From assembly GCA_030617105.1 (NCBI GenBank), contig JAUWWC010000001.1, positions 4,759 through 68,758 of the forward strand: a stretch of DNA of 64,000 bases, given 5' to 3'. Below the pieces are notes generated by a model. The model saw only the letters and a program-made list of their open reading frames with translations, searched no databases and was not told the DNA's origin. The stretch comes from Candidatus Nealsonbacteria bacterium (GTDB lineage: Bacteria; Patescibacteriota; Minisyncoccia; Minisyncoccales; GWA2-38-27). Of the stretch, positions 17,787 through 41,004 are shown one piece after another. Numbering within the stretch: position 1 is the stretch's first letter; every line of letters starts with the position of its first letter. A program made the position numbers and the translations under genes.

Positions 17787-18470
17787 ATGTTAAAAGAAAT
17801 TATTGATAAATATTATTTGGATAGGCAGAGGAATAAAGAACAGCGTCATTTTTATATCAGTGACGCTGGCAAGTGTTCTCGGGCAGTGTTTTTTAAATTT
17901 AAAAACGCTCCCAGAAAAGAAATGGGAGCAAATATCTTGAGATTATTTGATCATGGAGACCATATGCACAAGCTTATAATGAAGTCTTTATTAAGCACTA
18001 GAGATATTCATGTCGTGGCTTCTGAAGTAAATATTGCTCCACAAGAGATAATTTCAGGCAGAGCCGACGCCATAATTAGTGATGGAAAGCAACTCTATGT
18101 TTTAGACATTAAAAGCATGAATAGTATGATTTTCAGAAATTTGATACAGGCAAAAGAGGAAAACGTTGAGCAGCTTCAATTATACTTGCATTATTTTAAA
18201 ATACCTAAGGGAATCCTGCTTTATGTTGATAAAGATAAGTTAGAGCTGAAAGAGTTTATAGTAAGCTATAATCAAATCCAAGCAGAAAGTCTTTTGAAAC
18301 AGTTAACTGTTCTTAAAAAACAAATTGATTCTAACACTATTCCTTCACGTCTTGCCGATTATCCAGATGGTTGGCAGTGTAATTATTGCCAGTTTAGAGA
18401 AATCTGTGATATGGGAGCTCCAGATGAAATGAAATGGGACGATTTTAAACAAAAAATAGAGTCTCAATAA
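17787..18470 (+). CDS. Cas4-like / RecB-family PD-(D/E)xK nuclease with 4-Cys Fe-S cluster signature (DUF83-like), stand-alone
   Basis: N-terminal Cys (SDAGKCSR), GRADAII (motif II), VLDIKS (D-x-K), QLQLY (QxxxY), C-terminal CNYCQFREIC (Cx2Cx5C). Confidence 0.6.
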   Translation: MLKEIIDKYYLDRQRNKEQRHFYISDAGKCSRAVFFKFKNAPRKEMGANILRLFDHGDHMHKLIMKSLLSTRDIHVVASEVNIAPQEIISGRADAIISDGKQLYVLDIKSMNSMIFRNLIQAKEENVEQLQLYLHYFKIPKGILLYVDKDKLELKEFIVSYNQIQAESLLKQLTVLKKQIDSNTIPSRLADYPDGWQCNYCQFREICDMGAPDEMKWDDFKQKIESQ

Positions 18471-18533
18471 ATAATTAACAAAATAAAAATTAAAAAGGAG
18501 CTTAGCTTCTTTTTAGTTTGGGAGATTTTGGCC

Positions 18534-18660
18534 TTGACAAGGTTCTTTAATAGGGGTTTAATGCATTAGAGACAAGATGGTCTTGTTTCAAGGTGTAAAG
18601 TTCTTTGAAAATTGAAAAAGTAAAAAAAACAGAAATTTTAGAAAAGAAAGGAGAATAGAA
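18534..18660 (+). promoter_or_regulatory. conserved promoter + 5'-UTR hairpin element, copy 1 (TTGACA-N17-TTTAAT; hairpin ACAAGA-TGG-TCTTGT at 18572-18586; AATTGAAA...AGGAG before ATG)
   Basis: Shared with copies at 22931-23017 and 25777-25864; stem sequences differ but stay complementary. Confidence 0.5.
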
Positions 18661-19623
18661 ATGGAAAAAAGAATAATGGCAAGAAATATTGCATGGTTTT
18701 GTGTTTTGCTTGCTGTATTAGGTAGTTTGATTTGGTTCAATAATCTTAGTATAGCTTTGCAATGGAATCCAAAAGCAGGTCATGGATTTGAATATCATGG
18801 TCCAATCTCTTATTTTGATCGTTTTGCAGTAGATTTTTCTACAGTTAGCACTCTTGTACCTTTTTTTGGGATGTGCCTTATTGCAAGAGGATTTTTCAGT
18901 ATTGCTAAAGCCAAAGAAAAGACTAATTGTTCAAAGGTCTTTCCATTTTTTGTGAATTACGAACGTATTATGGTTGCCTTAGGATTGATGGGAACGGTCT
19001 GGGGGCTTATTATGATTGGGTATTACCCATCTGAACAAGTCCAAATGTCACAGTTGATAAATTGTTTGAGAACCGCTCTTTATTCAACTTTAATTGCCTT
19101 GATTTGGGTGTTTCTTATTGTTATACCACTTAGATATAGTATGCAGCGAGCTTATAGAAGTATTTCTGGTTACCAGGTCTTAAAACCTAATGAGACTATT
19201 ATTTCCCTTTTAGGAGACCTCAGTTCAGCAGCTTCAGGCCTTACTGAGACCATAAATGAAACCAGTAGTACTTTTAGCCAGCTTAAGAATGAAGTCTCAG
19301 GAGCTAAAAAGGAATTTCAAGAAGTTGATAAGTTGATAGCAGAGATCAAAGGTAAGGCTGAAGGTGTATTTGATAAAGCTCAGGAGTCCTTTAACCAGAT
19401 AAGTTCTGGATCTCGGGCTTGGCAGCGAGCTGCAGAAAAACAGCAAAAAGCTGCTGAGGCGCAAGAAGCATTTTTCCAGCAATTAACCAATGAGTTGGAC
19501 AAAGTAATAAAAGAAAGGGATGAATTAAAAGGAAAATTAGACCAAACAAAACAAGAATTAGTTGAAGTAAAAAGCAAATTCCGTAGATTAAGGGATTTTG
19601 TTAGAGGAATAGTTGGAAAATAG
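18661..19623 (+). CDS. MotA/TolQ/ExbB-family proton-channel protein with ~165-aa C-terminal coiled-coil tail
   Basis: 4 hydrophobic segments; ALGLMGTVWGLIMIG matches TolQ/ExbB G-L-x-G-T-V-W-G signature; following TM resembles TolQ TM3; heptad-rich K/E tail. Confidence 0.6.
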   Translation: MEKRIMARNIAWFCVLLAVLGSLIWFNNLSIALQWNPKAGHGFEYHGPISYFDRFAVDFSTVSTLVPFFGMCLIARGFFSIAKAKEKTNCSKVFPFFVNYERIMVALGLMGTVWGLIMIGYYPSEQVQMSQLINCLRTALYSTLIALIWVFLIVIPLRYSMQRAYRSISGYQVLKPNETIISLLGDLSSAASGLTETINETSSTFSQLKNEVSGAKKEFQEVDKLIAEIKGKAEGVFDKAQESFNQISSGSRAWQRAAEKQQKAAEAQEAFFQQLTNELDKVIKERDELKGKLDQTKQELVEVKSKFRRLRDFVRGIVGK

Positions 19624-19636
19624 AAAGGAGCAAAAA

Positions 19637-20503
19637 ATGGAAGATTTATTAGAACGGGTAGGAACACTTTTTGGTGCTGAAAAAGAGGAAGAAGTGTCTA
19701 CGGCTGAAACTTTTGAGTTATTGTGTCAGATTGCTTTGGCTCTACTAATAATCTTTGTTATGGCTAATACTATTTTTAGAGGTAGAGCTCAGGCACAGAT
19801 TGATGAAAGTAGAGGTAGGCAAGGTGTTCTTGAAGATGAAAATAGAAGATTTAGACAAGCAGATCCAAATATTGCAAGCTATGAGAGAGCAATGATGGAT
19901 GTACAAAAACAGAAGCTTCTTTTGGCATTAGAAAAGATTGAAAATACCCTTCGTGATGATTTCGGGATTGATCATTTTGCACCAAAAGATCGCAGTACTC
20001 ATGAAAGTAAGTATTTAATGAACGATCTTCTTTCAGGGGAAAAAGTAATTAATGAGCGGTTTAAACAAGCTTGTATTATTGCTAAACAAGTTTTCTTAGA
20101 CAGAAAAAAATTGCGACAGAACTGGTGTGATAGGATACCTTTGGTTGAGCCAGGATTAGTATTTGATAGTACTCCAGAAAAACAATCAATTATTACAAAC
20201 CCTGAAGTTATAAGTCCGGAAAATGAAATATTGGTATTTCAGGAGATTGCTAATAGAATAGAAGGGATATATGCTGATTGTTGCGATATGCAGCGCATGG
20301 CCCTTTCTTATCTGCAGGAGTATTATTATGAACATACAGAATTACTAAAAGGAACTGAATTTGATAAGAACTTAAATAATGATGTATCTTCAGCATCAGA
20401 CAAGGAAAAACGAAGACTTATGTTGCAACGTAGTCAAGAATTGTATATGTATATAAAATCACTTTTTGAAAAACAGAATGTACCACTGCTTAGCGGAGTT
20501 TAA
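19637..20503 (+). CDS. single-pass membrane protein (N-in, TM aa about 25-45, ~240-aa C-terminal domain), candidate TolR/ExbD/MotB-like partner of the upstream channel
   Basis: Start at ATG 19637 with AAAGGAG SD, abutting stop of upstream gene; TM lacks canonical Asp but is preceded by Glu; topology only. Confidence 0.45.
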   Translation: MEDLLERVGTLFGAEKEEEVSTAETFELLCQIALALLIIFVMANTIFRGRAQAQIDESRGRQGVLEDENRRFRQADPNIASYERAMMDVQKQKLLLALEKIENTLRDDFGIDHFAPKDRSTHESKYLMNDLLSGEKVINERFKQACIIAKQVFLDRKKLRQNWCDRIPLVEPGLVFDSTPEKQSIITNPEVISPENEILVFQEIANRIEGIYADCCDMQRMALSYLQEYYYEHTELLKGTEFDKNLNNDVSSASDKEKRRLMLQRSQELYMYIKSLFEKQNVPLLSGV

Positions 20504-20536
20504 GCACGACGGTCATTAAGAAAGGAAGGTGCAAGA

Positions 20537-22885
20537 ATGAGATCCGCAAGAAAAAAACCTGTTATTACAATAGCTTTGTTTGTAGTTATCAGCGCCTTGC
20601 TCCCTGGAAGATTTTGCCTAGGGAGCAAGGGCGAATTATCAGCAAAAAAAGCTAATGCAAGATTGTATGCTAAGATGCATATTAATAAACTTTGCGAGCA
20701 AGCAAGAAAACAAGAAGTTGATGTTAATGATCTCTGTGAGAAAATGCTGCAGAATCCAGCTAAATATCAAAACAGAAGACAGGCCTGGGATAACTTAAAG
20801 CAGGAACAAACTCAGATGTTTACTGATTGGTATCAAAAGGAAGTGAAACTTGTTTTACAGGCAATTGACCGGAACTACTTTACTAAAGAAGAGCGAGATG
20901 CTTTTCTAAAACCTCTAGACGAAGTAGTTAAGGACTATCTTGATAAGAATTTTGGCAAAAGCCATACAGATGGAACAACAGTATTTGGCAAAGCAAGAAA
21001 AAAAGCTTATGAAAGCCAACTCAATAAGCTGACAAAAGATGTTTATCCCACAGAAAGCGAAGTTGATACAGCTGTGGCTAAAAGACAGCTCAATAACTTG
21101 CGGATTAAAATATTGAATCAGCTTATTAAAAAACAAAAAGAACCTGTTTTTTCAGAAAATGTAAGTACGCTTAGCAGCGATTTCGTTAATCCCATACTTG
21201 ACGATGCTAAAAAGCAATTAGAAAAACAAGGTTCAATTGTGACCGGTTCTTCTGGCGCTAGTTATGTTGTGCCGGAAGATATCAGGAATTTCATCAGCAG
21301 GGAGATTACTACTTATCAGAACAAGCTTAAGCAGGAAAAGCAGGGAAAAACAATAGCCAATAAGGTCTATAAGATGTTTCCTTCAGTTAAGAAGAAAGTT
21401 GATGATGAGGCAGGCAAAATCGCTATCAAAAGATTTCGCAATGCTATATCTGAAATGAATTTGTCAGTTGACAAGAAGGTTTTAAAAAAGCTGATAAGCG
21501 GGAGCTTATCAGTTCATGCTGACAAAGATAAAAGCTGGAGCACTTGCTTGAAACGTTTTCGACAAGATATTGTTAACAAAGCCATTGATAATCATGCAGT
21601 CAAGGCTCCAAAAGACAAACAATCTGATTTTCGCAACTTTCTGTCATCACTTATTTCAAACAGTGATCAATCTTGCAAAGATGCTATGAATAAACTGGTT
21701 GATAGAAGCTTGAAGCAGGAGTTTGATCGTATACGAAAAGAGATTGCTCAGCAGCAATTCAGAGATTTCTTTGGACCGCTTGAACAAGGTTCTTGGCCTT
21801 CTTCAGAAAAAGCAGATGAGCTGATTGACAAATGGTACAATAAATCAGTGAACATATCTGAATCTGAAGCTTTGAAAATGCCTGATGTTTCATCAAGGTC
21901 CTTTAATTCTAAAGACCTGCTTAAAGAGACCATTGAAATGGTTCGCGAAGCAGAAGAAGCAGGAATAAAAACAGGACTTGATGCTCTGAGGAGCCAGATG
22001 AGCACGGTTGAGAGACTTGAGTTTCAAGTCAAGAGCCAAATTAGAAATATGAGAGATCTCACTATTGAGAAGGTTATAGAGATTTACACACAAAAAGTAA
22101 ATTCATCTTGGTCTTCCAAGGATTATCCCCATCTTTTTACCCGAACTCAAAAGGAAATTAAAAGGCGAGCTAAGGATATTTTAGATTTAGAGATTGCTCG
22201 TCAGCGTCAGATTGCTAATGACAAAGCTAAAGCTGATAAAGCTCGAGCCGATGCTAAAGCCAGAGCTCAGCTTGAAGATAAAGGCAGGTCTGACATACTT
22301 GGCTTGGAAGATTCTGACAAGCCAGGAAAACCAGGTGGAGGAGGAGATCCTAATAAGTCAGGAAAACCAGGTGGTGGCACGCCTGATACTTTTGGCGGTC
22401 CTCCGGGGGGAAAAGGACCTGCAAAAGAACAAGAGGAACCGGGGGATCAAATGCCAGATGTTATTCTTGATTTTGGCTACGAAAGTGGAAAAGTTTATGC
22501 TGACATAATGTTTCCCAAAGAATCAAAAGACAAGCTTAGACTTTTTATGGATCTCAGTGTCAACCTTAATTCGTCTAACATGGTTATTGCTCGAAAGCTT
22601 TTTGCTGATTGGCTTAAAGACGCTGTCAAGAAAAGCAAAAAAGACCAGCAAGACATAAATTTCTATGTTTTTGCCCGAGTTTTTCACGGAAGTTCTGTGT
22701 TATACAGCATGGTTTATTATTTCAGAGAGTGCTTGATAAAAGCTTTAGAAGATACTGGTGATAAAAGAATAAAAATTCACTGGTATGACAGGCTTTTTTA
22801 TGGTTCTTCTGATATTGAGAAATACAGGGGTAAGCCTATTTTGCCTCCTAAGTTTGATAAAAAACTTATGCCGAGATTGGTATAA
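20537..22885 (+). CDS. large membrane-anchored or secreted protein with TolA/TonB-like architecture: N-terminal signal/anchor, ~600-aa K/E/A-rich alpha-helical region, Gly/Pro-rich spacer, ~150-aa C-terminal globular domain
   Basis: N-terminal hydrophobic segment; ANDKAKADKARADAKARAQ helical repeats; KPGKPGGGGDPNKSGKPGGGTPDTFGGPPGGKGP spacer. Confidence 0.5.
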   Translation: MRSARKKPVITIALFVVISALLPGRFCLGSKGELSAKKANARLYAKMHINKLCEQARKQEVDVNDLCEKMLQNPAKYQNRRQAWDNLKQEQTQMFTDWYQKEVKLVLQAIDRNYFTKEERDAFLKPLDEVVKDYLDKNFGKSHTDGTTVFGKARKKAYESQLNKLTKDVYPTESEVDTAVAKRQLNNLRIKILNQLIKKQKEPVFSENVSTLSSDFVNPILDDAKKQLEKQGSIVTGSSGASYVVPEDIRNFISREITTYQNKLKQEKQGKTIANKVYKMFPSVKKKVDDEAGKIAIKRFRNAISEMNLSVDKKVLKKLISGSLSVHADKDKSWSTCLKRFRQDIVNKAIDNHAVKAPKDKQSDFRNFLSSLISNSDQSCKDAMNKLVDRSLKQEFDRIRKEIAQQQFRDFFGPLEQGSWPSSEKADELIDKWYNKSVNISESEALKMPDVSSRSFNSKDLLKETIEMVREAEEAGIKTGLDALRSQMSTVERLEFQVKSQIRNMRDLTIEKVIEIYTQKVNSSWSSKDYPHLFTRTQKEIKRRAKDILDLEIARQRQIANDKAKADKARADAKARAQLEDKGRSDILGLEDSDKPGKPGGGGDPNKSGKPGGGTPDTFGGPPGGKGPAKEQEEPGDQMPDVILDFGYESGKVYADIMFPKESKDKLRLFMDLSVNLNSSNMVIARKLFADWLKDAVKKSKKDQQDINFYVFARVFHGSSVLYSMVYYFRECLIKALEDTGDKRIKIHWYDRLFYGSSDIEKYRGKPILPPKFDKKLMPRLV

Positions 22886-22890
22886 ATTCA

Positions 22891-22930
22891 AGGAGCTAAC
22901 TCTTAAAATAAGAGTTAAGCTCCTTTTTTC
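22891..22930 (+). terminator. rho-independent terminator (13-bp stem GGAGCTAACTCTT/AAGAGTTAAGCTCC + T-run)
   Basis: Read directly after stop at 22885. Confidence 0.7.
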
Positions 22931-23017
22931 TTGACAAAGTTATTTATAGGATGTTTAATGCAATAGAGGCAAGAAGGTCTTGTCTTTAGCACTTTAACAA
23001 TTGAAAGGAGACAGAAA
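22931..23017 (+). promoter_or_regulatory. conserved promoter + 5'-UTR hairpin element, copy 2 (TTGACA 22931-22936; hairpin GCAAGA-AGG-TCTTGT 22969-22983; AATTGAAAGGAG)
   Basis: Aligned by eye with copies 1 and 3. Confidence 0.5.
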
Positions 23018-24655
23018 ATGAATAAAAGAATTTTCTTGATAATTGTTATACTTTTTCAGATAGGAAAAGTTAGTGTAGCTAATTATCCGCCAAGAGTTAA
23101 AATTCAGAATCCAACAAGTGGTTCAAAATTTAAACTTGACGAAGAAATTGTTTTTAGAGGAATTGCAGTTGATTTAGAAGATGGAGAATTACCAGAAAAA
23201 AATCTTACTTGGACATCTGATTTAGATATTTATATTGGTCAAGGTAATTCATTGACCTATAAGGGTCTTTCAGTTGGTCCTCATATTGTTATGTTAACAG
23301 CATTTGATTCAGAGGGTTCTGTAGGCAGAGATTCAGTTTTTATTACAATACAAGACCCTAAGATCACTAAACCTATTGTTAAGAAACCCAAAAAGGAACC
23401 TAAAACTGGACCTGAAGGACCTAAACTTGAAGAGCTTGAACCAGGGGCGCCATCTATTGAATTTCTTTTTGTGCCTTCTTTTCGCAGTTTCGAAGATCTT
23501 ACAGGCAGAGTATTGAGTGCTGACCCTAATAATTTTGCTGTTGCTGTTTATATTATGAAAGATGGTCTTTGGTGGAGTAAGCGGGTAGGCAAGATTAATA
23601 GAGAGGGCAGATGGATTTGTGATATTACGACAGCTGAACGTGATGAAGTAGCGCTTAAAATCCTTGTCTATCTTGTTCCAAGCGATTTTAAACCCCCGTT
23701 AGCTTCTGGCAATTTTCAGCTTTCTCATGAATTAGAGAAAAATAGTGTAGCAAAAATAGAAGTACTTCGGAAAATAAGAATGCCCAAGGTAACGTTACAG
23801 TCAAAAAGGGAGCCAGAAATCAAGAAGATCCGCAAAAAGCCAGAACCTAAAGGTCCAATAGAGGCATTGGGAGAGCTTTTGATTCGGTTGCTGCCTAAAG
23901 AAAAGCAAACAACAGAGACTCTGAAAAGATATCTCCCTTTAGCAGTTGGCAACAAATGGACCTATCAGAGAACCGTTTACAAGAGCGATGAAGTTTTTCA
24001 TTACAGAAAGCAAATTATTGAGAAACCTGGCTGGAATAGTCCCCCTCGAGGAGCTGTCTATTTTACCCTCGGCCGGACAATAGAAAAGATGCCCCAGAGT
24101 TCTCTAGAGACATATAGCATTTCTAATTCTACTCTAACAGACAAATTTGCATCCTGGGACGTAGAAATTGAAGGGACTATTCCTAGAGATGGAAGATACT
24201 CCTCACTTTATATTAAAGAGGAGCCAAATGTTAAATGGCTTTATGTTGATGGAGGTGTTTGGGAACTAATGCAAGGTGAATATTTAGGCGCTGAGACCAT
24301 AAGTCAGACTTGGCTAGCGGTCTTAGAGCCAGGGATAATAATTTCTGACTCAGCAAAAGAAGGGGAGATACCTTTCTGGGCAATAGGAGCAGTTTTAATC
24401 CCAGAAAAAATCACTACCCCGGCTGGAAAATTCTCAAGCTGCTTGAAGAATTGCACTATGATTAGAGGTCAAAATTTGAAAGAAGTATTATTAAAAGATA
24501 TGCCTCCTGAGTATTCAGAACAGGAAGATGGTTTTGGAAACTTCACGACCATATCTTTTTATGCGGAAGATGTTGGCTTGATCAAAGAGGTTCAGTATAA
24601 CTCCAAAGGGGAACTTGTATATGAATTAGCGTTAATCGAATATAAGGTAAATTGA
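23018..24655 (+). CDS. secreted multi-domain protein (signal peptide; Ig-like N-domain; domain shared with the GH17-like protein; C-terminal domain shared with the downstream paralog)
   Basis: RGRVLSADPNNFAVAVYIM...WICDITT aligns with 25865 product; PLAVGNKWTY and YELAL motifs align with 24778 product. Confidence 0.55.
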   Translation: MNKRIFLIIVILFQIGKVSVANYPPRVKIQNPTSGSKFKLDEEIVFRGIAVDLEDGELPEKNLTWTSDLDIYIGQGNSLTYKGLSVGPHIVMLTAFDSEGSVGRDSVFITIQDPKITKPIVKKPKKEPKTGPEGPKLEELEPGAPSIEFLFVPSFRSFEDLTGRVLSADPNNFAVAVYIMKDGLWWSKRVGKINREGRWICDITTAERDEVALKILVYLVPSDFKPPLASGNFQLSHELEKNSVAKIEVLRKIRMPKVTLQSKREPEIKKIRKKPEPKGPIEALGELLIRLLPKEKQTTETLKRYLPLAVGNKWTYQRTVYKSDEVFHYRKQIIEKPGWNSPPRGAVYFTLGRTIEKMPQSSLETYSISNSTLTDKFASWDVEIEGTIPRDGRYSSLYIKEEPNVKWLYVDGGVWELMQGEYLGAETISQTWLAVLEPGIIISDSAKEGEIPFWAIGAVLIPEKITTPAGKFSSCLKNCTMIRGQNLKEVLLKDMPPEYSEQEDGFGNFTTISFYAEDVGLIKEVQYNSKGELVYELALIEYKVN

Positions 24656-24777
24656 AAGGAGCGGAAAATGATTAAGAGAATTTTTCAAAAGAAAGGAGGA
24701 TTGAAACGAAAAGGATTGTAATTGTTTTAGAGAAATAGAAACAGAAACCCTTTAGGAAAACATGAAAGGAGAAAAAA

Positions 24778-25731
24778 ATGAAGACTCTACTAAAAAATGT
24801 AAAGTTAGTTATTTTGGTTGTTTTTGTGGCTCTGGCTTCTTTATTCTTTTTTGAAAGAAAGCCTAGTGAGGCTTCTAACCAGCCAACTGAGATCAGGATG
24901 AAAGAGCGAAAGACAGTAGAGAAAGCTACCACTACTGAAAATTTTATCCCCGGTACCTATGATCCAAGATTACTTATGCCCCTAGCTCTTGGAAATAGCT
25001 GGACCTACGGTTGGAAAAGTGCTGCTGTATCGACCTTAAAAGAAGTAGAATCCAAAGATAAGGCAATTTTTAGGGGTCTAAGCTGGTACTCATTTGGTGG
25101 AAAGAGTGTGCTGGCCAGATGCTATGGCTATAAAGCAAAAGCCCATAAGGAAACTTACACCCTTATCCGACAGGATGGCGATCACTATTTCTTTACTATT
25201 TCTATTGATCCCAAGGTACCTTCAGAACAGATACGCGATGGCAGATTTGAAGATTCTGTTGAGAATTGCTGGACCTGGTGGGACCTTAGGCAAGGCTCTT
25301 ACGGTTCAATGGGAATGACTGAGTCCATAAAACGGAATTGGGGTATCCATAGAGATTATCTTCTTGGCAAACAAGCTGAATTGCCAGATGATTTTCCAGC
25401 AGACCACCGCAACGCTATTCACATTGAGTTTACAGAAGGTGAGTGGGGCGATAGTTGGTTGGAATTTGCTTATTCTAAAAATCCCTGTAGATATGTATAC
25501 AAAACCATGGGTAATGAAGTTAAGGTAGCTGCTGGAACATTCAAAAACTGTATTGAAGCGATTGAGAAGGTTCATAAGGATGCCGAAGAGAAAAGCCCCC
25601 TGGTCTGGGAGACCCATATATTCTGGGCTCCTGAGGTAGGCAAGGTCTGGGAATACCAGAGGCTTGCTGATGGTACCATAACCTATGAGTTGGAGCTCCT
25701 AAAATTTGTTCCAGCCCAAAAGAAAAAATAG
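24778..25731 (+). CDS. secreted protein, paralog of the C-terminal domain of the 23018 product
   Basis: Signal/TM at N-terminus; PLALGNSWTY...YELEL shared motifs. Confidence 0.55.
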   Translation: MKTLLKNVKLVILVVFVALASLFFFERKPSEASNQPTEIRMKERKTVEKATTTENFIPGTYDPRLLMPLALGNSWTYGWKSAAVSTLKEVESKDKAIFRGLSWYSFGGKSVLARCYGYKAKAHKETYTLIRQDGDHYFFTISIDPKVPSEQIRDGRFEDSVENCWTWWDLRQGSYGSMGMTESIKRNWGIHRDYLLGKQAELPDDFPADHRNAIHIEFTEGEWGDSWLEFAYSKNPCRYVYKTMGNEVKVAAGTFKNCIEAIEKVHKDAEEKSPLVWETHIFWAPEVGKVWEYQRLADGTITYELELLKFVPAQKKK

Positions 25732-25740
25732 GCAAAATAG

Positions 25741-25776
25741 GTGTCAGATTTATTTTCTGGCACCTCTTTTTTTCGC
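25741..25776 (+). terminator. rho-independent terminator (GGTGTCAG...CTGGCACC stem with one G-U, then T9)
   Basis: Read directly. Confidence 0.6.
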
Positions 25777-25864
25777 TTGACAAAGCATTGATAAGATATA
25801 TGCTATAAAAGAGAGATAAGGCGGTCTTATCTCAAGATTAAGAACCTTAAAAATTGAAAGGAGA
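25777..25864 (+). promoter_or_regulatory. conserved promoter + 5'-UTR hairpin element, copy 3 (TTGACA 25777-25782; hairpin GAGATAAG-GCGGT-CTTATCTC 25813-25833; AATTGAAAGGAG)
   Basis: Aligned by eye with copies 1 and 2. Confidence 0.5.
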
Positions 25865-27766
25865 TTGAAAATGGAAAAGAGAGTCTTTTTAATGATTGTT
25901 ACGATAGTGTTAGTTTTGAATTATTTTGTTCCTGTTGTATGTGGAGCAGAATCTGTGCCTGCAATCGGGCTCACTTATGTGCCGAAATATGGCAGTACTG
26001 AGAACTTGCGAGGCAGAGTATTAAATGCCAATTCTAAAGATTTTGCTGTTGCTGTTTATATTATGGTAGATCGTTTTTGGTGGACCAAGCCTTATTGGGA
26101 CAGCCCGATAACAGAAATTAATGATGATGGAACCTGGGTTTGTGATATTACCACTGGCGGTATTGACGAGACCGCCACCAGGATTGCTGCTTATCTTATT
26201 CCAGCTGATTACAAGCCTTCTTTGATCAGCTGGAATTTTCAGCTTCCTCAAGATCTGGAAGAGAAAGCTTTAGCAAAAGCAGAGGCAAGGCGGGATGTAT
26301 TAGGCAAAGTGTCGATAATACCTAGAGTTGAAGCAGAGTCCAAGATAGATATCAGGGAAAGAGATGTTGATAAACTGAAAGGTGTATGTTACGGACCTTT
26401 TCGTGATAATGAGAATCCTGATATGGGCATCCTTCCGTTTCTTGATGAGTTGAATCCTGATATTGGGTTTATTCCCAAGGTAGCCAGGGCAATTAGGACA
26501 TATGGTTGTACCAATACGCTTGGTAATATTCCTGCATTGTGCGAGAAAATTGCTATAGACTGCTATCCCGGGGCTTGGCTTGGTAAGTACAAAGCAGAAA
26601 ATAGAGAAGAAATTGAAAGTTTCATCCAGATTGCTAATCAGAACCTCAATTGTGTTAAAGCTCTAATTGTGGGAAATGAGGTTCTGCTGAGAGAAGATAT
26701 GACCGGGGAAGAGTTGATTTTCTACATCAGGGAACTGAAAAAAACAGGAGTTCCTGTGACAACCGCAGACATATGGAGAGTTTGGCTCATGCACCCAGAG
26801 CTTGCCGATGAGGTTGACTTTTTAATGGTTCATATCCATCCCTACTGGGAAGGAATATCAATAGGGGATGCTGCAAATTATGTTATACAGCGCTGGAATG
26901 CCATGAAGAAACGTTTTCCCGGCAAAAGGATTGTGATAGGTGAAACAGGATGGCCCTCTGAAGGTAAAACAATAGGTAAAGCCATAGCCAGTCCAGAAAA
27001 CCAGGCAAGATTTTTTAAAGAGTTTACTCAGTTAGCTGAAAAGGAACGGATTGAATACTTCTATTTTGAGCTATTTGATGAACTCTGGAAAGATAAATTT
27101 GAAGGTAAAGCTGGAGCTCATTGGGGGATCTACAATTCAGATGGTTCATTAAAAGATCATATGAAAGATCTGATTCCTACCCAAGCCCTCGAAGGGATTA
27201 GCCGGCCTCTAAGAGAAGTTGCTAAAGTTAAGGTCAGTGCTCCTCTTATTGTTTACAGGGATGCTGGTTCAGAAGAAAATAGCTTCCAGCCATCGGGTTG
27301 GATGGGTGATAGCGAGTGCATAGATTTGGACAAGGCCTGTGAGATAAACCCTTATGCTGGTAAGACCTGTATCCGTATTAGCTTCAAAGCTGCTCGATTC
27401 CTCTCCTGGGGTTGGGCTAGTATTTATTGGCAGTATCCTTTAAACAACTGGGGTAAATATCCTGGCTATGAGCTGTCAGGAGCTAACAAGCTTAGCTTCT
27501 GGGCTCGAGGCGAGAAAGGCAATGAAAAAGCAGAGTTTAAGACAGGAGGGATTAGGAGTTGGGTTCCAACAGAGTTCCGTCGCGATTCCTTTGGTCCTGT
27601 CTCTACTGGCGTCATGAAACTTACTCCAGAATGGAAAAAATATATCATTGACCTAAAAGGTAAAGACATGAGTAGTGTGATTGGCGGCTTTTGCTGGACA
27701 ACTAATCGTTGGTGGAATCCCAAAGGTTGCACGATTTACTTAGATGATATTCAGTTTGAACCATAA
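25865..27766 (+). CDS. secreted glycoside hydrolase family 17-like (beta-1,3-glucanase-like) protein with N-terminal domain paralogous to the 23018 product and a ~200-aa C-terminal probable carbohydrate-binding domain
   Basis: KGVCYGPF, LIVGNEVLL (acid/base Glu) and IGETGWPSEG (nucleophile Glu) GH17 motifs; signal peptide. Confidence 0.6.
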   Translation: MKMEKRVFLMIVTIVLVLNYFVPVVCGAESVPAIGLTYVPKYGSTENLRGRVLNANSKDFAVAVYIMVDRFWWTKPYWDSPITEINDDGTWVCDITTGGIDETATRIAAYLIPADYKPSLISWNFQLPQDLEEKALAKAEARRDVLGKVSIIPRVEAESKIDIRERDVDKLKGVCYGPFRDNENPDMGILPFLDELNPDIGFIPKVARAIRTYGCTNTLGNIPALCEKIAIDCYPGAWLGKYKAENREEIESFIQIANQNLNCVKALIVGNEVLLREDMTGEELIFYIRELKKTGVPVTTADIWRVWLMHPELADEVDFLMVHIHPYWEGISIGDAANYVIQRWNAMKKRFPGKRIVIGETGWPSEGKTIGKAIASPENQARFFKEFTQLAEKERIEYFYFELFDELWKDKFEGKAGAHWGIYNSDGSLKDHMKDLIPTQALEGISRPLREVAKVKVSAPLIVYRDAGSEENSFQPSGWMGDSECIDLDKACEINPYAGKTCIRISFKAARFLSWGWASIYWQYPLNNWGKYPGYELSGANKLSFWARGEKGNEKAEFKTGGIRSWVPTEFRRDSFGPVSTGVMKLTPEWKKYIIDLKGKDMSSVIGGFCWTTNRWWNPKGCTIYLDDIQFEP

Positions 27767-32216: not shown

Positions 32217-32315
32217 AATCATTGACCAATTCGTCTAATTTGTTTAATATATAATTAGTTACCGAAGATCTTTCGGTTTTAACAAGTAAATAATTTCAGA
32301 AAGGAGCAAAAGATA

Positions 32316-32627
32316 ATGAAAGAACATATTGGAGAATTGATTATAGGAATATTTCGAGGCGTATTTAGAATTTCATCATGGATTACTCAAAAAAATTGCA
32401 TCCTGGGATTTAGCTGGTTATTTATAGTAGCCTTTGGAAGTTGTATGCTGATGAACTACTTTGGGAAAGTAGCCTCTGGATGGAGGATATACTCTGGATT
32501 AGGGTTAGGAATAGGATTCGCTGCTGTGGCAACAGTGATTATAGTAATTACATGTTTGGGTTTTCTTTATGGTTCTGGAAAAATTAAAGAAGAAATCAAC
32601 CCAGATAGTCAGAAAGCTTGGGGTTAA
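32316..32627 (+). CDS. small membrane protein (103 aa)
   Basis: three hydrophobic segments; good SD AGGAG. Confidence 0.4.
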   Translation: MKEHIGELIIGIFRGVFRISSWITQKNCILGFSWLFIVAFGSCMLMNYFGKVASGWRIYSGLGLGIGFAAVATVIIVITCLGFLYGSGKIKEEINPDSQKAWG

Positions 32628-38869: not shown

Positions 38870-38908
38870 TAGCTTTCCTTGATTTTTTTATAAAAATATA
38901 ATATAATG

Positions 38909-39190
38909 GGCCTGCGGGGTGGAGAAGTAGTATCTTGCGAGGCCCATAAACTTTTTGTGGCCCAGAGTAGTAATATTCTGCGGAAAAATTCTCTAAATTG
39001 CTGGAAAGCCCATAAGGGTAATCAGCAGCCAAGGTCGTCTAGGGCGACAAGGTTCAGAGACTATAATGGGAACTTCCTTTTTAAAAGGAAGATGGTATAG
39101 TCCGTTCCATCTAGAAATAGATGGCTAACATTAAAGAACCTCGAGACACAGGTGCAATTCCTGTCCCCGCGACTAGTATTCTTTAGAATT
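38909..39190 (+). ncRNA. candidate structured non-coding RNA of unknown class, downstream of a TATAAT box at 38903-38908
   Basis: ~280 nt without convincing ORF; multiple GC-rich local stems (GGGCC...GGCCC, CCCATAAGGG); identity not established. Confidence 0.25.
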
Positions 39191-39191
39191 T

Positions 39192-39977
39192 ATGAATTGG
39201 TCAATACAGGAAGAAAATAAACTTCGGGAACTTTATTTGAATACTTCACTTACTTTGAGTGAAATCGCCAAGAAGTTGGGACGAACTCCTCCAGCATTAA
39301 ATAATAGATTGGCCAAGATGAAAGTTAAAAGAAGGTTGACTCCAAATTCTAAACATCCTAAAAGAATAACCCCAGCTTTGGCAAGAATTCATGCTCATAT
39401 TTGTGGAGACGGATGCATTTATAGTTATCAAGCGAGAGATGATTATGGTTATTGGGCAAAATATCGAAAGAACACTATGCGTATTAGATATAATCTTAGT
39501 TATTGTAATACCAATAATGATCTTTTAAAAGAATTTAAAACAGATATTTATGAAGTGTTTGGGGTAAGAGGAAAGAAAATACATCAAAACGCAATTATTG
39601 TAGATTCAAAAAGGATTTGGGAATTTTTAAGAAATATGGGCGCGGGCGATTCGTTTAGTTGGTATATTCCAAAAGAAATTAGCAATGGTTCAAAAGAAGT
39701 AATGAAAAATTGGATTAGAGCATTTTTTGATGATGAAGCCTATTTTAATGATAGTGGTAGAATCAGAGTAAAATGTGTTAATAAACAAGGACTTAAACAA
39801 CTTACTAAAATGGTTAATAATTTTGTTCCTTGTAATCTTAGACCAAAGAGAGGTTCTTACTGGGGTAAAACTTTTTGTATAAGTATAAGCAAAAAAGACG
39901 CTCCAAAGTTTTTTTCGAAAATAGGATCAATTCGTTATAAGCCGGGGAGTAGAATGGTATCTAAGGCCGTCTCATAA
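39192..39977 (+). CDS. LAGLIDADG-family homing endonuclease-like protein with N-terminal HTH; 3' end runs into tRNA-Met
   Basis: HTH LTLSEIAKKLGRTPPALNNRLAKM; two LAGLIDADG-like motifs (AHICGDGCIY and RAFFDDEAYF); stop codon lies in the tRNA anticodon loop. Confidence 0.5.
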   Translation: MNWSIQEENKLRELYLNTSLTLSEIAKKLGRTPPALNNRLAKMKVKRRLTPNSKHPKRITPALARIHAHICGDGCIYSYQARDDYGYWAKYRKNTMRIRYNLSYCNTNNDLLKEFKTDIYEVFGVRGKKIHQNAIIVDSKRIWEFLRNMGAGDSFSWYIPKEISNGSKEVMKNWIRAFFDDEAYFNDSGRIRVKCVNKQGLKQLTKMVNNFVPCNLRPKRGSYWGKTFCISISKKDAPKFFSKIGSIRYKPGSRMVSKAVS

Positions 39978-40095: not shown

Positions 40096-40587
40096 ATGCC
40101 ACTCACACCATTTCATTGGGGGCCAAGTTCTTGGATAGGACTAGCTCTATTTAAGATTTTAGATTTTCCAGCTCTGATGATGGCTAGTGTTGTAGTTGAT
40201 ATAGAACCCTTTTGTGTTCTTTTATTTAATTTGAATTATCCTCTTCATGGATTTTTTCATAGTGTTTTGGGTGGTTCAATATTGGCAATTTTAACAGCTG
40301 TAGTTTTATATTTTTTGCAAGGCAAGATTAAAAAAATAATGGCTGTTTTTAAATTAGCTCAGGACTCGTCATTTAAAAAAATCCTCGTCACCTCATTTTT
40401 CGGTGTTTATTTCCATATTCTTTTAGATTCATTTCTCTATAGCGAGATAAAGCCATTTTATCCTTTAGAAATTAATCCATTTTTAGGATTATTTTCTGTC
40501 TCCCAAATTTATCTTTTCTGCGCCCTCTCCTTCTTAGTTGGAATTCTGCTTTACTTGATTAAACTAGCAAGAAGTAAAAATAATTGA
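40096..40587 (+). CDS. polytopic membrane protein, possibly DUF4184/YdjM-like membrane-bound metal-dependent hydrolase (start trimmed out of the tRNA)
   Basis: MPLTPFHWGP N-terminus and His-containing TM segments; family assignment is a weak recollection. Confidence 0.45.
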   Translation: MPLTPFHWGPSSWIGLALFKILDFPALMMASVVVDIEPFCVLLFNLNYPLHGFFHSVLGGSILAILTAVVLYFLQGKIKKIMAVFKLAQDSSFKKILVTSFFGVYFHILLDSFLYSEIKPFYPLEINPFLGLFSVSQIYLFCALSFLVGILLYLIKLARSKNN

Positions 40588-40681
40588 CAAACAATTTAAA
40601 TATTGCTAAAAATAGTATTAGAATTTTGTTCTTTGAAAGTTGAATAAAGTATTAATGTTTAAAATTGAAAAGAGGTGAAAA
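40584..40681 (+). promoter_or_regulatory. promoter + leader, copy A of a duplicated ~75-nt element (TTGACA 40584-40589; 39-nt identical core 40599-40637)
   Basis: ATATTGCTAAAAATAGTATTAGAATTTTGTTCTTTGAAA identical to 40927-40965. Confidence 0.5.
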
Positions 40682-40911: not shown

Positions 40912-41004
40912 TTGACAAAAAGTTCATATATTGCTAAAAATAGTATTAGAATTTTGTTCTTTGAAAATTGAATAGTTAATGTTTAGAAAGAAAGGGAGAT
41001 TAAG
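40912..41004 (+). promoter_or_regulatory. promoter + leader, copy B of duplicated element (TTGACA 40912-40917; core 40927-40965)
   Basis: See copy A. Confidence 0.5.

Follow-up and report, generated by a model that had tools for sequence, protein, structure and literature searches.

A triplicated promoter-leader module with a conserved stem-loop at predicted mRNA 5' ends in a Nealsonbacteria-like gene cluster

Three neighbouring transcription units on a chromosome segment of a Candidatus Nealsonbacteria bacterium (contig JAUWWC010000001.1; the whole 64-kb stretch analysed here is referred to as the window) begin with paralogous copies of one promoter-leader module, in which a putative sigma-70-type promoter is followed by a 21-nucleotide (nt) stem-loop that would be encoded at the start of transcription. 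The stem is maintained by compensatory changes, the maintained structure is that of the sense strand, and copies were found within a single gene cluster. The three modules, which most likely spread via local duplication, would drive a lineage-specific cluster of cell-envelope and secreted proteins in this member of the candidate phyla radiation (CPR). By analogy with characterized leaders, the hairpin is best read as an ordinary 5'-terminal protective stem-loop of the mRNA, a reading that carries a probability of about one half and for which we infer both the transcription start site and the stabilizing function.

Layout of the module

The window (35% G+C) carries nearly all of its genes on the plus strand, with a housekeeping content that includes a ribosomal-protein operon, aminoacyl-tRNA synthetases, gyrB, dnaE and similar genes. 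The module recurs at 18534, 22931 and 25777 on the plus strand, and it is composed, in order, of a terminator-like hairpin, TTGACAA(R)G, a spacer of 16-17 nt, a weak -10 hexamer (TTTAAT in units 1 and 2, TATGCT in unit 3), the stem-loop, an A-rich leader, a GGAG Shine-Dalgarno (SD) sequence and the ATG. Each stem-loop opens with GAG, 6-8 nt past the -10 hexamer, and the distance from the start of the -35 hexamer to GGTCTT is 45, 45 and 46 nt in the copies of units 1, 2 and 3 (c1, c2 and c3; Table 1). Promoter plus hairpin of unit 2 are 81% identical to those of unit 1 over 54 nt. The core AAGNNGGTCTTRT occurs three times in the window, compared to 0.03 occurrences expected by chance, confirming the three copies that a preliminary description of this DNA had reported. 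The hairpins of that description are present as well, but their stems had been drawn too short, the real ones measuring 9 bp in each of c1, c2 and c3 and including the initial GAG. The stem of c3 can be written with its inner pair bracketed, as GAGAUAAG(G)-CGG-(U)CUUAUCUC; c1 carries AATTGAAAAAG, and its true SD sequence lies 40 nt farther downstream.

Folding of 30-nt segments showed the three hairpins to be non-random, with −9.6 kcal/mol for c1 (z = −3.4), −11.2 kcal/mol for c2 (z = −3.8) and −9.6 kcal/mol for c3 (z = −4.0). Across the 12 distinct hairpins found in the window and its relatives, values range from −6.4 to −12.7 kcal/mol, and at most 1 of 200 shuffles was equally stable. Folds of the whole leaders gave no support for a larger riboswitch-like structure, with non-significant z values of −0.7 to −1.9. 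On these models, a stable stem-loop is to be expected from the sense transcript of the module.

Parts of the layout are generic. The preliminary description had treated promoter, box and ribosome-binding site as a constant arrangement; the -35 and the ribosome-binding site AATTGAAAGGAG were indeed found but are not peculiar to the module, and the TTTAATGCAWTAGAG box is present in c1 and c2 only. TTGACAARG has six matches in the window, compared to 1.8 expected, the extra sites being another promoter (2401) and two intragenic positions (1192 and 3635), and TTGACAA(A) is also used at other credible promoters of the window. Similarly, AATTGAAAGGAG recurs at 24650, and single-mismatch versions are found at 19619, 40663, 42848 and 59963 (minus strand); with up to one mismatch allowed there are seven matches, compared to 1.9 expected, including internal ribosome-binding sites and those of other genes. 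Because both elements recur elsewhere in the window, they represent the usual promoter and ribosome-binding site of this organism.

The hairpin is distributed more narrowly: among some 20 promoter-like intergenic sites in the window, a stable hairpin coincides with the predicted start at the three module sites only, and a looser motif search of the window, allowing three mismatches, returned chance-level matches only. A partial exception among these sites is a different hairpin at 32261-32277. This site (32222-32280), upstream of a 103-residue open reading frame (ORF; 32316-32627), consists of TTGACC, 17 nt and TAATAT, followed by TTAG, an unrelated hairpin (ACCGAA-GAUCU-UUCGGU) and UUUUAAC, and could be a second start-proximal hairpin or a misplaced terminator.

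Covariation and strand of the helix

When one genome of each species was scanned for the motif pattern, 13 loci resulted, the sole true relative among them being L004, a Candidatus Nealsonbacteria metagenome-assembled genome. Its matches at units 1 and 3 are syntenic, a diverged copy is present at unit 2, and matches to the strict pattern in this genome are confined to the MotA-like/secreted-protein/GH17 cluster. The 782-residue protein of unit 1 forms only 10 clusters among 5.8 billion proteins. The contigs of these family clusters (L015-L023) have conserved synteny, with the gene order ribosomal proteins, Cas4-like PD-(D/E)XK protein, MotA-like protein, proteins of ~290 and ~780 residues, secreted protein of ~550 residues and GH17 protein. 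A further lineage, L030, was found through homologues of the MotA-like protein. In all, 12 further copies were obtained from nine related Nealsonbacteria-like contigs, for a total of 15 copies of promoter plus hairpin in 10 lineages.

These 15 copies align without gaps through the stem. Standard pairs fill 97.0% of the pair cells, whereas shifting the 3' arm by 1-3 columns lowers this share to 38-56%. Both sides have changed at four of the nine pairs (A-U to G-C at 38/56, G-C to A-U at 39/55, U-A and C-G at 41/53, and A-U to G-C at 43/51), and two of these double changes come from L030, the lineage recruited by protein homology. The covariation score was matched by none of 500 shuffles, and RNAalifold independently gives the identical helix. 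The compensatory changes noticed at first in the window copies are thus also present in the enlarged alignment.

The preliminary description left open whether a selected RNA structure or a palindromic operator was involved, and it is the former that the comparison supports. Nearly every one-sided change is an A-to-G transition on the 5' arm or a C-to-U transition on the 3' arm, and the 135 pair cells contain 21 G.U cells versus a single A.C cell. The unit 2 copies of L015 and L016 have the arms GAGAUGAG(A) and (U)CUUGUCUU, which achieve full RNA pairing via three wobbles, yet differ from each other at three of nine positions when taken as DNA half-sites. In addition, the minimum free energy is lower for the sense than for the antisense strand in all 12 distinct hairpins (for example −6.4 versus 0.0, and −11.2 versus −3.4 kcal/mol). 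Strand-asymmetric wobbles and better folding of the sense strand together support selection on the sense transcript and do not fit a DNA palindrome or cruciform. These comparisons support the notion that the hairpin is under selection as a sense-strand RNA structure.

An operator spanning approximately +1 to +21, to which a dimeric repressor would bind in a transcriptional regulon, is consequently quite improbable, even though the inverted repeat lies at a fixed 45-46 nt from the -35 and its primary sequence is highly conserved, promoter spacer included. LacI-type operators over +1 resemble the module in having an inverted repeat of ~21 bp fixed just downstream of the -10; the module is unlike them in that its half-sites diverge by G.T-type changes preserving only RNA pairing, the 21 wobble cells being G.T in DNA terms. 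The strand asymmetry and the weaker antisense folds equally oppose an operator, and searches of the neighbouring genes, to which they were confined, against Pfam, NCBIfam and PADLOC revealed no helix-turn-helix or other regulator domain, and thus no cognate regulator there.

The loops of the window copies are UGG, AGG and CGG, which had given the impression of a constant NGG. Orthologues have GAA (unit 2 of L004), UUG (unit 2 of L016, L019, L020) and GUA (L022), as well as the 5-nt loops AAAAA (L021), AAAAG (unit 2 of L015) and AAUAG (L030), amounting to nine distinct loops of 3 or 5 nt across the 15 copies, and the shared NGG is a local coincidence. Since the loop varies among orthologues, loop-specific recognition of the CsrA type is unlikely. 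Targets of CsrA/RsmA share with the three window copies a small leader hairpin with a G-rich triloop, but a target with GGA in its loop was rejected as a candidate, given NGG in the window and GAA, UUG, GUA and AAAAA in the orthologues.

More generally, the hairpin might be the RNA site of a dedicated trans-acting protein or small RNA that defines a small post-transcriptional regulon. Such a factor would account for the finding that stem and promoter are far more conserved than neutral sites, for the nearly invariant AAG...CUU core of the stem and for the presence of one element before functionally linked, syntenic units. It is less easily reconciled with the freely varying sequence and size of the loop, the lack of GGA or any other common single-stranded motif, and the loss of the unit 2 hairpin from three relatives; nor was a gene for an RNA-binding protein recognized within the cluster. 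A dedicated factor appears unlikely.

Extent of the element and its possible roles

A covariance model of 27 nt (R1) was run over 166 kb plus a further 85 kb (~251 kb in total) of sequence from the clade and from distant homologues. It scored units 1, 2 and 3 of the window at 37.7, 37.9 and 35.8 bits, and in the ~251 kb only the known promoter-linked copies exceeded 24 bits, the next best match reaching at most 16.3 bits. A model blind to L030 scored the L030 copy at 24.6 bits (E = 2.5 × 10−4). In this sequence the motif was not seen before dozens of unrelated genes, and a dispersed palindromic repeat (REP- or MITE-like) was rejected, as copies occur there only at these promoters. Distant homologous clusters (L024, L025, L031 and L032, with L031 and L032 at ~42% G+C) are without the element. 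The promoter-only pattern matched, in metagenome contigs, only loci equivalent to those of L016 and L023 plus one chance match. A pattern scan of viral contigs gave one chance match without hairpin. A scan of the window at Rfam gathering scores reported only a group I intron and two tRNAs and nothing at the three elements, and no description of the element was found in the literature on Nealsonbacteria and on CPR promoters. As far as accessible sequence shows, what the element marks is a single gene cluster, as opposed to a dispersed regulon. The earlier proposal that the motif links these genes into one regulon is thus weak: the modules are paralogous and sit inside one conserved cluster, with no further copy in the ~251 kb.

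Within the cluster, the terminator and promoter of unit 3 are restricted to the window and L004 lineages; elsewhere the GH17 gene abuts the preceding gene with a ribosome-binding site only, and units 2 and 3 form one operon in the relatives that lack the unit 3 promoter. The proteins of units 2 and 3 are paralogous (44% identity over 141 aligned residues), their ribosome-binding sites and start regions are 78% identical, and the window contains a second duplicated promoter pair (40584 and 40912), all of which would agree with a similarity without function, the remnant of a recent event in which promoter DNA was duplicated along with the paralogous genes. That explanation is very improbable and already disfavoured, as the element is retained across lineages with saturated synonymous sites, its substitutions keep the pairing, and conservation does not extend upstream of the -35. 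In orthologues of unit 1, the stretch of 57 nt that runs from the -35 through the complete stem has a mean identity of 76%, compared to 48% at four-fold degenerate sites of the downstream gene and 31% in the 40 nt upstream of the -35, and the onset of conservation in the leader alignment is exactly at CTTGACAA.

A hairpin that is selected for structure, is indifferent to loop sequence and lies at the very 5' end fits the role of an mRNA stabilizer best. Promoters have been described in which a 5-bp discriminator is followed by a YRR "start" element (PMC12641261). The hairpin, at 6-8 nt past the -10, begins where a start site usually lies, and T-A-G would be the start element of the module. Transcription is accordingly predicted to begin at its A or G, either on the first base of the stem or immediately before it, so that c1 and c2 would each have 0-1 unpaired 5' nucleotides and c3 1-3. 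5' hairpins are established mRNA stabilizers in Escherichia coli and Bacillus subtilis, and the RppH of B. subtilis requires at least 2 unpaired 5' nucleotides (PMC3997798). The hairpin would thus hinder decay that depends on the 5' end, as brought about by enzymes like RppH, RNase J or RNase E, and would raise the half-life of the cluster mRNAs. Genes for RNase J, RNase Y and RppH are absent from the 64-kb window. AG-rich initial transcribed regions are typical of Terrabacteria (PMC12641261); the purine-rich 5' arm matches this preference, which may impose an added sequence constraint.

The same location and composition would suit a hairpin that acts as a nascent structure during transcription, in promoter-proximal pausing, in promoter escape or as a constraint on the initial sequence, instead of in mRNA decay: it sits exactly in the initial transcribed region, and its 5' arm has the AG-rich character just described. 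Neither a U-tract nor a pause-like element follows the stem, however, and a preference for certain initial sequences leaves the compensatory changes of the 3' arm unexplained, so that a co-transcriptional role seems decidedly unlikely. An intrinsic terminator or attenuator was rejected for lack of a U-tract, the stems being followed by AAGG, UUAGC and AAGAU. The minus strand of c3 alone looks terminator-like, and no convergent gene is present there.

Several observations weigh against the protective stem-loop. The -10 TTTAAT is without the canonical A at -11, an alternative extended -10 in c3 (TGcTATAAA) would shift the start into the stem, and the start site is itself a prediction made from sequence. 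In unit 2 of L020, L023 and L026, the promoter is kept up to ...TAGAG and ~17 nt of hairpin are missing precisely; the element is dispensable at this unit. Furthermore, a purely structural role would not call for so much conservation of primary sequence: the window and L004 or L016 have hairpins that are 100% identical, with four-fold degenerate sites saturated, and the TAGRGG of the promoter spacer, just before the -10, is conserved as well. The latter cannot be explained by RNA structure and hints at sequence-specific recognition or at recent recombination.

Recombination is also brought up by the uneven relationships within the cluster. Between the window and L004 or L016, the module has 91-93% identity even though the MotA-like protein has only 34%, indicating that the primary sequence of the module is constrained beyond pairing or that the module was exchanged by recombination. 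The MotA-like protein of the window is closer to those of L021 and L030 (42-49% identity), and, by its 782-residue protein, the window falls with L015 and L016 (65-67%). This mosaic conservation suggests recombination inside the cluster.

A more far-reaching view would make the whole cassette a control module that is recognized sequence-specifically by an RNA- or DNA-binding factor, was copied to new operon boundaries and coordinates a CPR-specific surface apparatus made of the MotA/ZorA-like, stator-type trio and the secreted glucanase-like proteins. Such an arrangement is doubtful and quite unlikely; if it were true, the surface apparatus would possibly serve episymbiotic contact with host cells.

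Gene cluster, other window features and known systems

The units of the cluster are listed with their control elements in Table 1. The first comprises a conserved trio (18661-22885), in which the gene of a MotA/ExbB-like protein with a coiled-coil tail is followed by those of a 288-residue protein, apparently with one N-terminal hydrophobic segment (judged by eye), and of the 782-residue protein, with a Gly/Pro-rich repeat. The MotA-like protein has a weak match to ZorA2 (E = 2 × 10−6). In relatives, the trio always adjoins rpsI and a solo gene for a Cas4-like PD-(D/E)XK protein (17787-18470 in the window). The distant contigs L031 and L032 have a MotA-like gene followed by two genes of similar size, with a GH17 gene nearby in L032. 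An anti-phage defence reading was rejected: the only matches pointing that way are the weak one to ZorA2 and that of the Cas4-like neighbour, and the cluster shows vertical conservation at its place beside rpsI.

Table 1. Control elements and flanking features of the three transcription units in the window
Feature	Position	Strand	Sequence and remarks
Terminator-like A/T-flanked hairpin, end of the upstream unit with the Cas4-like gene	18492-18514	+	AAAAAGGAGC-TTA-GCTTCTTTTT; read from sequence
Unit 1 promoter	18534-18562	+	-35 TTGACA (18534-18539), 17-nt spacer, -10 TTTAAT (18557-18562); kept in 9 of 9 orthologues
Unit 1 hairpin (c1)	18569-18589	+	GAGACAAGA-UGG-UCUUGUUUC; predicted 5' end of the MotA-like operon mRNA
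Second conserved leader box, unit 1 only	18599-18611	+	AGTTCTTTGAAAA; from the unit 1 leader alignment
SD sequence GGAG and ATG of the MotA/ExbB-like gene	18650-18663	+	Gene at 18661-19623
Intrinsic terminator of unit 1	22890-22929	+	Long stem followed by TTTTTT; read from sequence
Unit 2 promoter	22931-22959	+	-35 TTGACA, 17 nt, -10 TTTAAT
Unit 2 hairpin (c2)	22966-22986	+	GAGGCAAGA-AGG-UCUUGUCUU, with two G.U pairs; before the gene of the secreted 545-residue protein (23018-24655)
Intrinsic terminator closing unit 2, after the gene of the 317-residue protein	25739-25773	+	Terminator scan
Unit 3 promoter	25777-25804	+	-35 TTGACA, 16 nt, -10 TATGCT; window and L004 lineages only
Unit 3 hairpin (c3)	25813-25833	+	GAGAUAAGG-CGG-UCUUAUCUC; before the gene of the GH17-domain protein (25871-27766)

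In unit 2, the 317-residue protein resembles the C-terminal domain of the 545-residue protein, of which it is a paralogue. The interval 24650-24722 contains the ribosome-binding site AATTGAAAGGAG mentioned above and a 17-codon ORF, MIKRIFQKKGGLKRKGL*, which looks like a relic of a paralogous signal-peptide start (MNKRIF of the 545-residue protein, MEKRVF of the 631-residue protein); such a relic would point to an earlier duplication or rearrangement involving units 2 and 3.

The leader of unit 1 has a second box, (G)TAAAGYTCTTTRAAAAT, which is found downstream of the hairpin in all unit 1 orthologues and is duplicated in L021. Predicted folds of several orthologues pair it with the region of the SD sequence or the start codon: in the window GUUCUUU would pair with GGAGAAU, and the L019 variant GUUCAUU with AAUGAAC at the AUG. 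The same complementarity is present in L022 (GAUGAAC), but the fold predicted there has an upstream AAUGAA as the partner of the box. The box could form a translational-control helix, with a register that is inconsistent between orthologues.

Elsewhere in the window, the second duplicated class of promoter plus leader (40584-40646 and 40912-40974) is 92% identical over 63 nt (TTGACAAA...TGCTAAAAATAGTATTAGAATTTTGTTCTTTGAAARTTGAATA) and lies before a small ORF and the gene of an amidohydrolase-like protein; it contains the GTTCTTTGAAA box that is also seen in the unit 1 leader, but no hairpin. An initiator-type tRNA(CAU) at 38908-39190 is apparently split by a group I intron (RF00028, 84 bits, 38938-39124), which separates the 5' half, GCGGGGUGGAG...CCCAUAA, from the 3' half, ...CCUCGAG...CCCCGCGA; a 261-residue ORF without Pfam match (39192-39977) lies downstream. 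At 2030-2480, the ribosomal-protein operon is broken between rplF and rplR by an apparent minus-strand ORF with hydrophobic stretches (judged by eye), which has its own promoters at 2350 and 2393 (minus strand). The plus-strand promoter at 2401 (TTGACAAAG, 16 nt, TAAAAT) is followed there by a G+C-rich hairpin before rplR.

Almost nothing is known of cis-regulatory RNA and mRNA turnover in the CPR (Patescibacteria), whose members cannot be cultured alone. A hairpin supported by covariation provides a handle for reporter or metatranscriptome tests and a marker for a conserved envelope and secretion cluster. Whereas the class of mechanism proposed here is not new, the element itself is without an Rfam family and is confined to a narrow CPR clade.

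The closest parallels to the proposed stabilizer are the leaders of E. coli ompA and papA and of B. subtilis aprE and ermC, which have a short stable hairpin at or near the mRNA 5' end, as is predicted for the module. In these stem-loops, as in the module, the loop sequence is unimportant and a strong SD sequence follows downstream, and they would block the access of RppH, RNase J or RNase E in the same manner as is proposed for the module (PMC3997798). In the account given of it (PMC4843948), the stem-loop near +4 in the 5' untranslated region of Helicobacter pylori vacA is likewise promoter-proximal and influences the expression of a gene for a secreted protein; the sequence and organism described there are unrelated to those of the module. 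The module similarly has no sequence relation to the ompA, papA, aprE and ermC leaders and differs from them in its occurrence in a CPR bacterium, in its triplication within one cluster and in the unusually strong conservation of its stem sequence.

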